A stretch of DNA of 64,000 bases from the IMG/VR virus record IMGVR_UViG_3300031998_000003, positions 128,001 through 192,000 of that record; one strand, written 5' to 3'. The stretch is from a virus. Taxonomy: Duplodnaviria; Caudoviricetes. The notes under the pieces were generated by a model. The model had not been told where the DNA came from. It saw nothing but the letters and a program-made list of their open reading frames with translations, and made no database searches. The first letter of the stretch is position 1. Every line of letters begins with the position of its first letter. Both the position numbers and the translations under genes were made by a program. Below, piece after piece: positions 33,922 to 63,133 of the stretch.

Positions 33922-34005
33922 GATTTCTTTGTGAAGATATATACATAATTTGTGTGATATCTGATACACAAGGATATCTAAAAAATCATAAGGAGGAACA
34001 TCCAA

Positions 34006-34908
34006 ATGTACGTACAAAACTTTCGCGAGGACCAGATCAGTTTTCTCGATAGTGTCGAACGCTATCTTGAAAAGGCTGGTATCAAGGTCCAAGCGATGGC
34101 ACCTCAGCAGCGTCTGGCAGTTATGACCAATGCTCGCAACACATTGTATTCATACGATGCCCAGATCATCGGTGACGTCGCTCGTCGTATCCTCAGATCC
34201 AATCTCGACAATGATACGGATGCACAGGCATTTATGCTGGCATTCTACTATCATGCTCAGGATCCTGCATTCATCACAATCGTGATGAAGTATCTCGAGC
34301 AGAGAAATGATCCGAGTCTGAATGGTGTGGTCGGTGCAGTTCTTCTGAAGGTGAGTGCGCAGTATATTGCGGAGCATAAGCCGAAGGATAAGAAGGACAA
34401 AAAGGACGACGAAACCACCGATGAGATCAAGGAGATTCGTCATATCCAGGCTGCAATCGAGCGTCTGCTCGGTACTGTTGCTGACACAGTTGTTCTGACA
34501 TGCGGAAACATGGCACATCACGAAGCACTCTTTGTCGCGGCATGCCTCGCGATTAACAGTGAGCAGACCATTATCGAGTTGGTGAAGGCTGACCTTCCGG
34601 TAACAGCTGTCATCTTCGATAAGATCATCACTGATCCGAGTTGCATCATCAAGGGTGCACTGCTTCTGAAGAAGAGCGATCTTCCCACGAAGCTCAGCGC
34701 AAACCAGACTGCATTCCTCAACTCTATCAAGAACTGGTTGTTCAAGAAGTTGAATGATACAGTCGAAGACGCTGTACTGCTTTATACCTATTTGGTCGGA
34801 GTATACGGTTCTGTGAAGCCCGATTTGTCTCCGCTGTATATCCAGATCAAGGATTGCGGAACAAGCTATCCGAATCTGCTTACTGTGGCCAAGCAAATTA
34901 CAAATTAA
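34006..34908 (+). CDS. Hypothetical helical protein, 300 aa
   Basis: RBS AGGAGGAACATCCA; early-type motif at 33940-33957. Confidence 0.8.
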   Translation: MYVQNFREDQISFLDSVERYLEKAGIKVQAMAPQQRLAVMTNARNTLYSYDAQIIGDVARRILRSNLDNDTDAQAFMLAFYYHAQDPAFITIVMKYLEQRNDPSLNGVVGAVLLKVSAQYIAEHKPKDKKDKKDDETTDEIKEIRHIQAAIERLLGTVADTVVLTCGNMAHHEALFVAACLAINSEQTIIELVKADLPVTAVIFDKIITDPSCIIKGALLLKKSDLPTKLSANQTAFLNSIKNWLFKKLNDTVEDAVLLYTYLVGVYGSVKPDLSPLYIQIKDCGTSYPNLLTVAKQITN

Positions 34909-42402: not shown

Positions 42403-44523
42403 ATGAAGATTGAGAAAACAACTACAGGTGTTATTATACGCGAACCATCGGATGAAATCAAACGGAAGTGTCTGCAATACTTTTCGTTACCGAATCCAGT
42501 ACGAGAATTCTTCGTCTATTGTAAGAAGGATCCTGATTACGAGAAACTTGTATCATTCATGCGTGATCATGACATCATCTATATCACATCAGGTTTTCTA
42601 AATATCAAGGACAAGGTTATTGAGTCATTGAATGTTTCGTCCGAAAAGCCGATTCAAACACCACGACTCATAACACTTGACATGAATCGTGAACCCCGTT
42701 CTCAACTGCAAAGAGACTGTATCGAACTGCTGACTACAGCAAAAGAGAATAAGATCACAGTCGAGCTGAAACCTGGAACTGGAAAAGCAGAGCCGTATTC
42801 CAGAAAGATCCCGACACCAACAAAAGCCGGTTTTACGTTGATGGGTGATCTGAAGATTGGTGATTACGTCTTTGCTCAAGATGGTACACCGACAAAAGTA
42901 ACGGGTATCTTTGAACAAGGTGAACAAGACATTTATAAAGTGACATTCCAGGATGGTCGTGTAGCATACTGTCATGAAGAACATCTGTGGACTGTGAGAC
43001 GAAATGATTGTTCAACTTGGGAAACGGTCATGACAAATAAGATGGATCTATCTGTGGATAATTTCGCTATTCCCTTATGCGAACCAGTTCAATATAATGA
43101 CAAACCATTTGTCGGGTATGAATGCGGATCTGTGAATGAAACGATATATCATTCAATGAAAGATTCATATGTATGTTCACCACCCAGTCGTATTCAGTAT
43201 CTATTTCAGAGCAGAGGGATTGGAACGGAAGGTGAGTTCCAGTGTGATGAATTGTACGCATACAATATATGGCTTCCAATGTTTTATCAGATGGGATATT
43301 CGGCGTACTATTTGGAGAATACCATCCATTATTCAAAACCGGAATCGTTAAAAATCAAATCTATTGAATTCTCACATCGAGAAAAATGCAGATGTATTAT
43401 GGTTGACAATCCTGAACATCTGTATCTGACTGAAGATTTCATTGTAACTCACAACACGTTCATCGCATGTTACTCTGCTGCAAAGCTTGGTCTGAAGCCT
43501 CTGATCGTTGCTCCGACATCTCTATTGAAGAATCAATGGATTGACAATATCGTAGAACTCGGTATTGACAAATCCGATATTGCAACAAAGATCTGGGATG
43601 CTCCTGACAAGAAGGTTTGTGTTGTTACAATATCCTCCCTGGAAGGAGCAATCCGTGATGACTGGAATGGTCTTCTGAAGACACTGGATGCTTCCGGTTT
43701 CGGTATCAAGGTTATCGATGAAGCACATCTCCATTTGAAGGGAATGCTGAAGTTCGATGCATTGTGTAACATCAAACACAACTGGTACATGTCAGCAACA
43801 CTCGGACGTTCATCAGCAGATGAAGACAGGATCCTGAACCGTGCTCTTGGAGATGCCAAACGGTTTGTTGGTAATGCTGCATATGAAGAATATCAGAAAG
43901 AGTACGTGAATGTCTATCTTCAGGACATCTACTACTACCCATCCAATAAATTATGTGAAGCATGTTTCAAATACGGCTCCAAAGGTTTGATCCGTTCATC
44001 ATACTACAACATGTTGATGACATACCATAATGGTGTTCCGTTTATCAAAAACATCATCACAATGTTGAAGCGTGCGAAATCGATCATTGATTATGATGGA
44101 AAGATTCTACTGTTGGTACCATTGTTATCGATCATTGAACAAGTCGTGAAAGCAATGGATCAAGATCCTTTCTTCAAGCAGTATTCGTATTCTGCAGTCG
44201 ATGGTTCAATGCCATTGTCTCAACGTCGCGAAGCGATGGAATCTGATTTCATTCTATCAACATCTCTTTCCATGGGAACTGGTGTTGATGTATCGAATCT
44301 AGGGGTGGTTGTCAACTTTGACCAATACTCTTCTTCGATCATCGGTGAACAGATCTTCGGACGTCTTCGCGACCGTGGTAAAGAGACATACTACATCGAC
44401 GTATGTGATGTTGTTAAACAGGCCAGAATGTTAACACGATGGGGACAAAAACGTCGTATCTTGATTCCATATTATCCTGGAGCAAAACGTGATATGAAAC
44501 GGTTCCCTGCTATACATTCATGA
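42403..44523 (+). CDS. SF2 (UvsW-like) DEAH helicase containing an intein
   Basis: PGTGK|T Walker A split by the intein; IDEAH, MSAT, GTGVD, QIFGRLR. Confidence 0.9.
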   Translation: MKIEKTTTGVIIREPSDEIKRKCLQYFSLPNPVREFFVYCKKDPDYEKLVSFMRDHDIIYITSGFLNIKDKVIESLNVSSEKPIQTPRLITLDMNREPRSQLQRDCIELLTTAKENKITVELKPGTGKAEPYSRKIPTPTKAGFTLMGDLKIGDYVFAQDGTPTKVTGIFEQGEQDIYKVTFQDGRVAYCHEEHLWTVRRNDCSTWETVMTNKMDLSVDNFAIPLCEPVQYNDKPFVGYECGSVNETIYHSMKDSYVCSPPSRIQYLFQSRGIGTEGEFQCDELYAYNIWLPMFYQMGYSAYYLENTIHYSKPESLKIKSIEFSHREKCRCIMVDNPEHLYLTEDFIVTHNTFIACYSAAKLGLKPLIVAPTSLLKNQWIDNIVELGIDKSDIATKIWDAPDKKVCVVTISSLEGAIRDDWNGLLKTLDASGFGIKVIDEAHLHLKGMLKFDALCNIKHNWYMSATLGRSSADEDRILNRALGDAKRFVGNAAYEEYQKEYVNVYLQDIYYYPSNKLCEACFKYGSKGLIRSSYYNMLMTYHNGVPFIKNIITMLKRAKSIIDYDGKILLLVPLLSIIEQVVKAMDQDPFFKQYSYSAVDGSMPLSQRREAMESDFILSTSLSMGTGVDVSNLGVVVNFDQYSSSIIGEQIFGRLRDRGKETYYIDVCDVVKQARMLTRWGQKRRILIPYYPGAKRDMKRFPAIHS
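42787..43455 (+). mobile_element. Class 3 mini-intein, 223 aa, endonuclease degenerate
   Basis: Ala1 (AEPYS..MGDLKIGDYV), block B EHLW, block F CRCIMV, C-terminal VTHN|T. Confidence 0.9.
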
Positions 44524-44541
44524 AAGCAAATACATAATGAT

Positions 44542-44740
44542 AATCCCTGCAGGAATGAGGGTACAGGTGTAGGCCACCACCTTCATCTTCCAATGGAATC
44601 ACTGGTATTGAGCTCACCGTGAGATCCATTGGAGGATATGACTCATTCCACATGGATTGCTCTCCCGTCCTTCTGGCTTTTCAAGAGTCATTTTCAAGAT
44701 TCCTTTCGGTTTGTGCGGTGGGGCTTTCGCCCCACCAATC
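44542..44740 (+). ncRNA. Structured ncRNA candidate 1 (long hairpin plus anti-RBS tail)
   Basis: Nested stems 44542-46/44654-58, 44552-59/44642-49 and 44586-97/44625-36; begins at +1 of TACA-N6-TA; ends at hairpin 44717-44736. Confidence 0.6.
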
Positions 44741-44763
44741 AAATTCTTCTTTAACGGTTTAAT

Positions 44764-44960
44764 AATCCGGGGTGTTCTGGTCAACTATGTTGACACCTCT
44801 CTCGTTCAGGGAGTACGTGCCTCCCTGTGCCGCGTGCGGGCGCGGCGGCCTCCGCTTTAACGCCATGTGTGATGTTCCTCCTAAACATACGCGCATAATA
44901 CACCATTCGGCACCCCGGATTTCATATATACAGTGTGGGGCTTCGGCCCCACACTGTGTC
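44764..44960 (+). ncRNA. Structured ncRNA candidate 2 (closed multi-stem RNA with a CCUCCU loop)
   Basis: Closing stem AATCCGGGGTGTT/GGCACCCCGGATT; at least four internal hairpins; G.U pairs favour the plus strand; begins at +1 of AACG-N6-TA; terminator hairpin at 44931-44956. Confidence 0.7.
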
Positions 44961-45002
44961 TTTGATTGCCGAAAAGCACCCCTACTCAGAATTATTTTTT
45001 TT

Positions 45003-47153
45003 TTAGAATGAACCATTAATATCTACAAACCACGATGGAGAGAATCCTTCCTGAGCAGTCAATGAGACTGGTGCACGTTCCTGTTGAGTACGATATTGTT
45101 TGTTATAGTCCATTGGAGAATAACCATATTCATCAACACCGTGTTCTCTGAAATATCCCATCGGATCTTGTGAGATCGTGTCATGTAGGAGCTGCTCTTC
45201 ATATGGTGCAGGTACATCTGGAAGGACCATGTTGTTTACAACAGCTTCAGTGATGTCATCCACGTATTTCTCAATAGCAGCTGTCGCACCTTGGAATGTA
45301 CTTTTTTCTTTAATGATTCCAAAACGCTCAATATGATCACCATAGTACCAAACAAAGATAGCATGATTGTATGCCATGACCATGTCATCATGGAAACCCT
45401 CTGCAGCCTCAATCTTACCAGTCTTTGAGCGTACAAGATTCGTGATATCCTTGGACAAATACTTCGATGTTAGTAAATGTCTATAGTCCTTCACATGAAC
45501 CTTCAACAGATCGAACATGCTGGTTCTGACAGACGGTGTGACATATGTGCCGATATATCCTTTTTCTTTTGAACGACGCTTCATAACTTCTTCTGGAGTT
45601 TCCTTCATGATTGCGTTCTTAGAAATATCCAATCTCGGATCATGATAGAATCTATATTCAATCTGGGTTTCCTGGATTAGATCGACGATTGCCTTACCGA
45701 TAGAATTTGTTTCAACACAGAAGATACCCTTTGGGCACAACTTTGCAATCTCTAGAATAATCCGCATCAGATCAGTTGGTCCGATGAATGGGGAGATTAG
45801 CTCACCGACAACCTGCATTGTATATGGATGAACGATGCAAATCGCTGTATTGTCTCCATTACCACCGGCAGCAACGTCAATACCAATCAGATATGGGATT
45901 GTTGTGTCGAAATACGGTGTAGATGAGTTGATGTCCGGAATCAGGATATCATGTTTATAGACATATAGATGAACCTTCTTCAGCAGAAAGATATCGTAGT
46001 CTGGTTCTCTGACATTCTGAACAATGTAGTCAATATCTTCCTGACGGAACAGTACTGACTTCGAACCACGGTATCTCTGAAGAAGAACACCTCGACGATA
46101 CTCATCCAGTTTATCAAGACGCACTGCTTCATTATATTGTGCTCTTAACCAAGCTTCGTCTTTTCGTAATTGCTTGTAATTGAATTCAATGTAGAGTGAC
46201 GTAACAGGTTGTGGATTACCATTCTCATCAATTGTATGCATACCTGCAAAATACTCTTTGAGCTCCTGCTCCGTGAAGTCATACAATTGTTCTGAGAATA
46301 CTGGTGTCATATCGATCATGTGCTGTGCCGTTCTACCAGTTTCTGTTTCCAAGTCACCAGGAGTCGAAAGCAGCATAACACATGTACGTCCACCTGTCTT
46401 CGCCGCGATTTCACGTCCAGAGATGATAGCAGGCATCGCACCTTCCATAACGGATGCTTGATACGGAATGTACTCCCACTCTTCAAGCATTGCTGCAAAT
46501 ACAGTGAAACCACGCATCTTGTCCTTCGCTTTGACAACAGAGTCTGCTTGAGATAGGATTGTGATGGATGTACCGTGTTCATCATATTTCAAAGACTTTG
46601 TTCCAGGAAGCTTCTGTCGACCATACCATGGATTCATATATGGTGGTAGTGCACAAATATAATCACGCAACATTTCAGCAGATTCCAAGCAACGGTCTTG
46701 TCGAATATGCATCATTGGAATTTCGATATTTTGATATTCAAATACAAACATGTACTCGAGTAATAGTGTACACCAGGTAGACTTATGCGTCTGACGAGGC
46801 TGACATAAGATGACATCGATACTATGGATGAAACACCATATGAGTGCTAGCGATGCACGTGATAGAATTGGTGGTAGTTTACCAGCACCACGAACAGGAA
46901 CTTTCGCAACTTCTCGGAAGAAATACCAAGGGTTCTGTTTACATTCAATACAGACACGGGCAATGTCTTCTTGTGAAATATTTTCATCATATGCATCAAT
47001 ATCTTGAACACCGAGTTCCGGATGTTTTACTTCTAGCATGAAATACCAGTTCTTGATACCGAGAACTTTCAACTCTTGTGCGGTTAACAAGAACGATTTG
47101 TTTCTTGTACCAAAATCATAGTACCGATTTCCGATTCGTCGGATATCGCTCAT
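45003..47153 (-). CDS. terL: Terminase large subunit
   Basis: ECKQNPWYFFRE, PRQTHKS (Walker A), LSTP, nuclease motifs IGIDVA and VETNSIG, HDDMVMAY. Confidence 0.92.
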   Translation of the reverse strand: MSDIRRIGNRYYDFGTRNKSFLLTAQELKVLGIKNWYFMLEVKHPELGVQDIDAYDENISQEDIARVCIECKQNPWYFFREVAKVPVRGAGKLPPILSRASLALIWCFIHSIDVILCQPRQTHKSTWCTLLLEYMFVFEYQNIEIPMMHIRQDRCLESAEMLRDYICALPPYMNPWYGRQKLPGTKSLKYDEHGTSITILSQADSVVKAKDKMRGFTVFAAMLEEWEYIPYQASVMEGAMPAIISGREIAAKTGGRTCVMLLSTPGDLETETGRTAQHMIDMTPVFSEQLYDFTEQELKEYFAGMHTIDENGNPQPVTSLYIEFNYKQLRKDEAWLRAQYNEAVRLDKLDEYRRGVLLQRYRGSKSVLFRQEDIDYIVQNVREPDYDIFLLKKVHLYVYKHDILIPDINSSTPYFDTTIPYLIGIDVAAGGNGDNTAICIVHPYTMQVVGELISPFIGPTDLMRIILEIAKLCPKGIFCVETNSIGKAIVDLIQETQIEYRFYHDPRLDISKNAIMKETPEEVMKRRSKEKGYIGTYVTPSVRTSMFDLLKVHVKDYRHLLTSKYLSKDITNLVRSKTGKIEAAEGFHDDMVMAYNHAIFVWYYGDHIERFGIIKEKSTFQGATAAIEKYVDDITEAVVNNMVLPDVPAPYEEQLLHDTISQDPMGYFREHGVDEYGYSPMDYNKQYRTQQERAPVSLTAQEGFSPSWFVDINGSF

Positions 47154-62874: not shown

Positions 62875-63026
62875 AAAAAAAAATATGTGCGGGCCGAAGC
62901 CCGCACGCAAAAGAATTCTTGGAGGCGTCACATTTCTGTGACAACCCATGGACAACGGAAAACGTAGAAAACATACGTTGGGAATTCTTCACACGGCAAG
63001 TGAAGAAAGGTTCATTTCATGAACTT
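62875..63026 (-). ncRNA. Structured ncRNA candidate 3 (four short hairpins with C/U-rich linkers)
   Basis: Begins at +1 of GACA-N6-TA (63037-63026); ends at the UUCG terminator 62887-62906 plus U tract; no internal ORF with an RBS. Confidence 0.5.
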
Positions 63027-63133
63027 ACAAATTTGTCGTCATCGTATGTATATTATTAAATCGGATAGGGAAGGTGTATAACTTCTAACCGCCTGAACTA
63101 ACTTTTACAAACCATCTATAGGAGGATACAGCA

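Follow-up and report, generated by a model that had tools for sequence, protein, structure and literature searches.

The segment from 44764 to approximately 44960 on the plus strand of the window is best explained as the gene of a trans-acting small RNA of about 160-200 nt. It belongs to a real, conserved and previously undescribed phage sRNA family whose transcription is predicted. The family would act as a trans anti-RBS regulator, and repression in trans of the initiation region (TIR) of gene 34006 is its probable and best-supported function. Since the CCUCC loop and the adjoining arm change in step with the 34006 RBS region in six phages, the sRNA most likely turns off 34006 translation late in infection, with expression, timing and repression all predicted from sequence. 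The window, the whole stretch of DNA analysed (64,000 nt), covers bases 128001-192000 of an IMG/VR virus record with a length of 248,669 bp and a completeness of ~92%. Because its terminase resembles, at only ~29% identity, that of Bacillus phages PBS1, AR9 and Goe21, and because pieces of a phage multisubunit RNAP are encoded in the genome, the record is regarded as an uncultured AR9-like (AR9/PBS1-like) jumbo phage. Related contigs and sequencing runs originate from rumen or sheep-gut samples. The element is located in a 479-bp gap between a helicase gene (42403-44523, plus strand) and a convergent terminase gene (45003-47153, minus strand), and its GC content is 58-60% compared with ~40% nearby. 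A cmscan of the element against Rfam 15 with E up to 10 returned four sub-threshold chance matches only, with no C4, 6S, Y RNA or tmRNA; ARAGORN found no tRNA or tmRNA within it, and the intergenic region had no blastn match among 50,697 phage records. The features of the element and of its predicted target are as follows.

44753-44764, plus strand: late-type promoter motif AACG (44753-56)-GTTTAA-TA (44763-64), predicted start A44764
44764-44776, plus strand: 5' half of the 13-bp closing stem, pairing with 44909-44921 (fold)
44780-44794, plus strand: hairpin H1, among the named copies only in the window and its twin L159
44795-44806, plus strand: unpaired pyrimidine tract ACCUCUCUCGUU, a second CUC/CUCC-rich stretch; CCUCUCUC or CCUUCUCC in relatives
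44807-44827, plus strand: hairpin H2 (fold; double changes in 3/7 pairs)
44829-44846, plus strand: hairpin H3 with conserved loop (U/A)GCGGG (double changes in 6/6 pairs, 100% of cells paired)
44864-44896, plus strand: hairpin H4 (RNAfold pairs 44865-96), stem co-varying
44864-44883, plus strand: anti-TIR segment, composed of the H4 5' arm and loop, with the CCUCCUA loop at 44877-44883
44893-44909, plus strand: conserved segment GCAUAAUACACCAUUCG, mostly unpaired, identical in 6/7 A-type copies, slightly deviant in L158 and L155
44909-44921, plus strand: 3' half of the closing stem (fold, covariation)
44928-44959, plus strand: terminator hairpin of 14 bp with CUUCGG loop and U-rich tail (terminator scoring)
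33985-34008, plus strand: TIR of gene 34006, with SD AGGAGG, spacer AACAUCCAA and AUG at 34006; best-supported target site (predicted), 12/12 match
34006-34908, plus strand: gene 34006, 300 aa, conserved in the clade, predicted target (sequence comparison)

Folding of 44764-44960 on the plus strand by RNAfold yields a dG of -94.3 (z = -6.95 relative to shuffles), and each of the parts proposed in the first-pass annotation was recovered, namely the 13-bp closing stem, four hairpins, the CCUCCUA loop and a UUCG terminator hairpin. The accompanying argument, that G.U pairs form on the plus strand only, does not discriminate between the strands of this copy. Folding of the minus strand is only slightly weaker (-89.8, z = -6.14; core -65.5 compared with -67.2 for the plus strand), so that G.U pairing alone leaves the strand unfixed. 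A similar balance, with roughly equal folding on either strand, can be observed in the A- and B-type copies described below, whereas the D-type copies clearly favour the plus strand, the fold of which is better by 6-11 kcal/mol.

With nhmmer and locus inspection, homologues were located in 10 or more contigs of related rumen phages. The A-type copies are those of the window, L159, L154/G004, L152/G005, L153/G001, L158/G003 and L155, while L157/G002, L156 and L006 carry the B type. All A and B copies except that of L006 lie directly 3' of the same helicase gene, in relatives with 76-99% helicase identity. Shorter or divergent variants (C, D and E) occupy the same locus in phages with a helicase 57-63% identical, and CCUCC is present in or at the H4 loop in every variant from A to E. 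The terminase of G004 is placed on the opposite side, yet the orientation of the RNA relative to the helicase gene is unchanged. A GC-rich hairpin follows every homologue downstream. In some relatives (helicase 56-72% identical) only a plain terminator is found at the position of the element. Pattern scans of viral contigs gave matches that were mostly chance or coding (L092, L094, L095). Only the C-terminal part of the helicase ORF served as search query; in the window, this ORF (42403-44523, plus strand) carries an apparent intein-like insertion at about residues 150-345, with a Hint-like stretch ending ..VTHNT, as judged by eye from the translation only.

A covariance model was built on the window structure, and the pair counts were made on its alignment because MAFFT alignments were not structure-consistent in H2-H4. 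The model aligned the seven A-type copies and did not reach the B, C and D variants. Standard pairs account for 96.8% of pair cells, compared with 83.8 +/- 1.5 in shuffles (0/500 reach 96.8%) and 38-46% (about 40%) in controls with the partner slid. Changes on both sides are found in 20 of the 44 pairs; in helix 1, the closing stem, 98.9% of cells are paired and double changes affect 3 pairs. As the alignment is fitted to the model and contains seven sequences only, these statistics are good but not exhaustive support. The B-type copies, inspected separately, have A-U in place of some G-C pairs of the closing stem, and their H4 is re-paired. In the covariance-model alignment, G.U pairs are retained in the stems. 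Taken at the level of comparative sequence, the pairs show a multi-helix junction closed by the 13-bp stem, in which H4 presents CCUCCUA in its loop.

The promoter motif at the 5' edge is present as first annotated, is conserved at the edge of the stem and equals the late promoter of AR9, placing the putative +1 on 44764. In AR9, dRNA-seq established late promoters of the form AACA-(6N)-TA/G, the last base being the transcription start site, early promoters of the form AAATATATATTAT-(6N)-G, and shortest 5' UTRs of 26 nt (PMC5312081). In every A and B copy, AAC[G/A]-N6-TA directly adjoins the base at which the closing stem begins, and TAC[A/T]-N6-TA is located at the same edge in the C and D copies. 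At the opposite side of the element, no such motif is conserved on the minus strand. In the four complete genomes, AAAACG-N6-TAAC is situated 25-32 nt upstream of the ATG of many large genes (~230-2650 aa). One of these is RNAP beta'-N-like and may correspond to AR9 g145 (virion RNAP beta'-N), an assignment made by a rough coordinate offset via Goe21 with no direct match. It should be noted that the plain noncoding enrichment of AACN-N6-TA is only ~2x and uninformative, the position relative to start codons being the informative measure. The early-type motif is likewise abundant in the phage of the window. Owing to its homology to the AR9 motif, a predicted late promoter with +1 at 44764 is well supported. 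Contigs of four sequencing runs were compared with 43000-47000; the one possible RNA run among them had no contig over the element, an outcome that speaks neither for nor against transcription.

At the other end, the hairpin at 44928-59 scores as terminator-like on the plus strand only, although the U-richness of the tail behind it is moderate only. In L152, L153 and L158 the helicase stop codon overlaps or adjoins the promoter, so a minus-strand transcript in these phages would run antisense into the helicase gene without a terminator. In some phages no terminator separates the helicase gene from the element. The combination of promoter motif and terminator, with no conserved ORF, points to an independent transcription unit.

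Two further observations concern early-type signals. In L152, L153, L154 and L157 a conserved TTTTCATATATATATTATTAwTATGAA, which fits the AR9 early promoter consensus, is found 3' of the sRNA terminator, placing the sRNA gene between the helicase gene and an early transcription unit. In the genome of the window, TGAAAGGAG is the commonest upstream word and TGAAAGGA occurs in 20 of 103 upstream regions; as TGAAAGGAG often stands directly after the early-type TATATTATTAAT motif, very short 5' UTRs are implied for that class.

Regarding complementarity, AGGAGGAACATC occurs exactly at 19480-91, at 33991-34002 and, on the minus strand, at 44871-82. The 12/12 pairing with AGGAGGAACAUC before genes 19494 and 34006 is confirmed by exact match, and the 17-bp matches with two bulges (genes 13118 and 20173) and those of 9-10 bp (12297 and 34924) are as the first-pass annotation stated. 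Its broader description of a shared initiation region of six genes is correct in that the matches exist, but they represent mainly the strong-RBS class GGAGGAAC of this phage, and its regulon and timing claims are only partly supported. GGAGGAAC is found 14 times in the genome, 11 times at RBS spacing before ORFs of at least 138 aa and once as the element itself, and the six genes are not paralogues and encode unrelated proteins. As the targets share this class, a match alone shows only the complement of a canonical initiation region; moreover, CCUCC pairs with any strong SD, so that high-ranking "targets" are partly trivial. A fixed-spacing RBS pattern gave no matches on the relatives, being too strict. 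When the proposed targets were tracked across genomes, only 34006 co-varied with the RNA, 20173 and 19494 doing so partly; the orthologues of 13118 and 34924 display no such tracking.

For 34006, the comparison covered G000 (the genome of the window), the complete genomes G001-G003 and the partial genomes G004 and G005. Orthologues of 34006 share 47-53% protein identity and always lie ~10 kb upstream of the RNA (about 10.7 kb in the window, on the same strand); a second viral-contig scan for them yielded no contigs beyond the five already known. The protein has no recognisable family according to PHROGs, Pfam, tblastn against phages, a PDB profile search and the ESM Atlas. The TIR spacers and the reverse complements of the RNA arms compare as follows.

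G000: 34006 TIR spacer AACAUC..; RNA arm (reverse complement) AACAUC..
G001: 34006 TIR spacer AAAACAC..; RNA arm (reverse complement) AAAACAC..
G002: 34006 TIR spacer AACAC..; RNA arm (reverse complement) AACAC..
G003: 34006 TIR spacer AAACACA..; RNA arm (reverse complement) AAAACACA.. (one bulge)
G005: 34006 TIR spacer AAAACACA; RNA arm (reverse complement) AAAACACA
G004: 34006 TIR spacer GGAGGAAA and a separate block AUGCCAUG; RNA arm (reverse complement) GGAGGAAA and AUGCCAUG

The second block of G004, AUGCCAUG, is lineage-specific and present in both the TIR and the RNA. The longest perfect matches between the RNA and its cognate 34006-family TIR are 12, 14, 10, 10, 9 and 15 nt in the six genomes, and all six cognate duplexes span the region from SD to AUG. 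Duplex and opening energies were used in place of RNAcofold of the full sRNA with the TIR, since pairing within the closing stem counts as a pseudoknot under RNAcofold. The cognate duplexes average -26.0 kcal/mol, a value reached by 4 of the 720 permutations. Opening of the paired 5' arm costs 9-15 kcal/mol, and net of opening costs the cognate value is -12.1 kcal/mol, compared with -7.35 kcal/mol for non-cognate pairs, and 8 of the 720 permutations do equally well. These counts refer to six partly related genomes in which the arms of G001, G003 and G005 are near-identical, and the energy p-values become marginal after correction for the ~64 families screened. In G002 and G003 some non-cognate RNAs pair as well as or better than the cognate one. 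Among all TIRs of a genome, that of the 34006 orthologue ranks 1/225 in G001, 1/221 in G002, 5/248 in G003 and 7/203 in G000. Within the 64 families with an orthologue in each of the four genomes, binding is strongest for an RNAP beta'-like gene, 34006 and 19494, and the same three display the largest cognate advantage, the two measures not being independent. The shared derived blocks, especially those of G000 and G004, appear to be the more persuasive part of the co-variation. For the 34006 family, then, complementarity to the target TIR seems to be maintained by co-variation, in a small sample.

The leader of 34006 (33930-34005, plus strand) carries rGATATrTACATAAT-N6-G and an inverted repeat GATATC..GATATC, unique in each genome and conserved in the six phages. 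It resembles the geometry of the early promoter (AT-rich 13-mer, N6, G), not its sequence, and may represent a distinct promoter class or an operator. From this geometry we infer only that it would fit a late RNA shutting off an earlier gene.

Several other explanations of the element should be weighed. The antisense match might simply be the initiation region of a small protein gene on the minus strand, where AGGAGG, a 10-nt spacer and ATG precede a potential product of 35 aa (44866-44759) and form a canonical RBS of the class used by 11 real genes. Protein-level conservation of this ORF, which the first-pass annotation had set against an RNA, is lacking even in the twin L159 (99% helicase identity), where a 1-nt insertion causes a frameshift to 28 aa. 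No start codon is present at the ORF in L152, L153, L155, L156 and L006, L154/G004 encodes an unrelated 17-aa peptide on that strand, and the ORF was rejected as a gene on these grounds. With a region of 58-60% GC containing covarying stems, and with the promoter motif missing from the minus strand, this explanation is barely credible. Almost as improbable is an element that acts in DNA through its inverted repeats, such as a packaging site, an origin or a recombination hotspot beside the terminase. The terminase gene is a neighbour of the element both in the window and in several relatives; the linkage of the element, however, is to the helicase gene, and the retained G.U pairs, the plus-strand preference of the D-type copies and the layout of promoter plus terminator all argue for a transcript.

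Two alternatives accept a structured plus-strand RNA and give it a different role. In one of them, the RNA is a general anti-SD decoy, a mimic of the 16S tail that titrates the SDs of host and phage mRNAs non-specifically, or it binds an SD-recognising factor, the 34006 match being a by-product of a consensus strong RBS. CCUCC is indeed the sole invariant feature across all variants, the second CU-rich single strand is also conserved, CCUCC or UCC tracts recur in two sibling ncRNAs of the window, and many TIRs reach -24 to -30 kcal/mol. A pure decoy would have no need of the lineage-specific changes outside the SD core (AACAUC, AAAACAC, AACAC, AUGCCAUG) that are common to the RNA and the 34006 TIR, and these changes therefore count against it and leave it unlikely. 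In the other, which we consider a distinctly unlikely account, the RNA is a protein scaffold or a sponge, or it stabilises or insulates the 3' end of the helicase mRNA, and the TIR complementarity is fortuitous. The constant position 3' of the helicase gene, in some phages without an intervening terminator, would suit such a role, as would the conserved parts outside the anti-TIR segment (the GCGGG loop and AUAAUACACCAUUCG) and the plain terminator that alone occupies the locus in more distant relatives. Against it, a separate transcription unit is indicated by the conserved promoter motif, which lies exactly at the 5' edge, and the co-variation with the TIR beats 99% of permutations. A 6S-like reading was also rejected: the similar length and the closing stem formed by the 5' and 3' ends recall 6S RNA, but 6S forms one long, irregular hairpin that has a bubble at its centre, whereas the RNA of the window is a multi-branch junction, and no Rfam 6S match was obtained at E up to 10.

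Under the preferred reading, repression of 34006 in trans, the process would be as follows. The non-virion RNA polymerase of the phage would start at A44764 from AACG-N6-TA and stop at the 44928-59 hairpin. The late transcript would fold into the junction, and its CCUCC loop would kiss, or nucleate on, the SD of the 34006 mRNA. Pairing would then invade the 5' arm of H4 and cross the spacer to the AUG, opening H4. The resulting duplex would occlude the 30S binding site, with a consequent decrease in translation and perhaps in mRNA stability. Other mRNAs with a strong RBS, possibly including that of non-virion RNAP beta'-C, would be secondary targets.

The genome encodes a homologue of this subunit outside the window, at G000 193500-195531 (L215:201-2231), corresponding to AR9 g154, the non-virion RNAP beta'-C subunit, which in AR9 has an early promoter. 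Its TIR has lineage-specific complementarity to the sRNA in G000, G002 and G003 (-27 to -29 kcal/mol). In the six-genome test 11 of 720 permutations were as good, and a clear cognate preference was observed in three genomes only. Non-virion RNAP beta'-C is accordingly a second candidate target, weaker than 34006, and its complementarity raises the possibility of feedback on the polymerase. The 539-aa ORF at G000 221397, guessed to be a lysin gene, was discarded as a target: its pairing of -27.5 kcal/mol is not kept in relatives, and the related ORFs of G001 and G003 have other N-termini and TIRs without an extended match.

Phage-encoded control of this kind has a precedent. The c4 antisense RNA of P1/P7, as outlined in PMC12197685, pairs through loop-exposed segments with the RBS of a phage mRNA and blocks its translation. 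The RNA of the window is likewise a phage-encoded structured small RNA with loop segments predicted to be directed against the RBS of an mRNA encoded elsewhere. Unlike c4, it has no Rfam match, belongs to a virulent-type jumbo phage with its own RNAPs, has its own predicted late promoter instead of being processed from the target operon, and uses the generic anti-SD CCUCC as seed. Among uracil-DNA jumbo phages related to this one, seven late promoters of AR9 give rise to antisense RNAs (PMC5312081), and ten novel "misc" RNAs, one of them intergenic, are described for phiR1-37. These are non-coding transcripts as well; they are mostly cis-antisense, unlike the trans-acting reading proposed here, and in a limited literature search no trans-acting anti-RBS sRNA with a co-varying target was found for AR9 or phiR1-37.

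In Firmicutes, the C/U-rich loop motifs of S. aureus RNAIII and of RsaE/RoxS seed on the SD, and the duplex formed over the AUG represses translation. The same design, a loop seed against the SD and a duplex extending over the AUG, is predicted for the phage RNA. RNAIII and RsaE/RoxS differ in being host-encoded and in using UCCC/CCCC motifs, and there is no homology; the loop of the phage RNA copies the full anti-SD core of 16S, and its specificity would come from the 5' arm.

If the preferred reading is correct, the consequences are several. Timing in jumbo phages with their own RNAPs is currently explained by promoter classes alone, to which a co-evolving sRNA would add control at the post-transcriptional level. 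For a virulent-type phage of Gram-positive hosts, a regulatory RNA that acts in trans would be a rare case, and it would be a new RNA family for the annotation of rumen viromes. The RNA/target pair is small and sequence-defined, and thus open to direct testing even though the phage is uncultured. The anti-SD design is also similar to that of the synthetic antisense oligomers now silencing jumbo-phage genes.

A wider reading, which we offer tentatively and regard as rather unlikely as a whole, joins these elements into an early-to-late translational switch of AR9-like phages, operated by a family of sRNAs with late promoters. At least three members would be present in the window (44542-44750, 44764-44960 and 62875-63037 on the minus strand), each with an anti-SD/anti-AUG segment tuned to particular mRNAs, and the 44764 RNA would repress both 34006 and non-virion RNAP beta'-C. 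Were this true, repression of RNAP beta'-C would constitute RNA-mediated negative feedback on the polymerase that makes the sRNA.

The two additional units have the following properties. The structured unit at 44542-44750 (plus strand) lies immediately upstream of the 44764 element and occupies the interval from the helicase stop codon to a hairpin at 44715-45. TACA-TAATGA-TA stands in front of it, and the folding energy of its 211 nt is -74.8 kcal/mol. Its counterpart in G004 occupies the same place, contains CCUCC and has a closing stem around GGUACCUCCAAUA. The unit at 62875-63037 (minus strand) has a GACA-AATTTG-TA motif, several hairpins, an unpaired GCCUCCAAG containing CCUCC, and a GC hairpin with U9 behind it. 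No ORF is present in this unit, and it diverges from the next gene. Short unalignable RNAs are also found at the helicase locus of more distant relatives with a helicase 57-63% identical (L171/L101, L176, L184, L185/L187/L189 and L172/L175/L201). They still have a closing stem and CCUCC in or beside a loop, together with a promoter-like motif (TAC[A/T]-N6-TA or AACG-N6-TT) and often a GGGCAU loop, which suggests fast turnover of a module whose function would have stayed constant.
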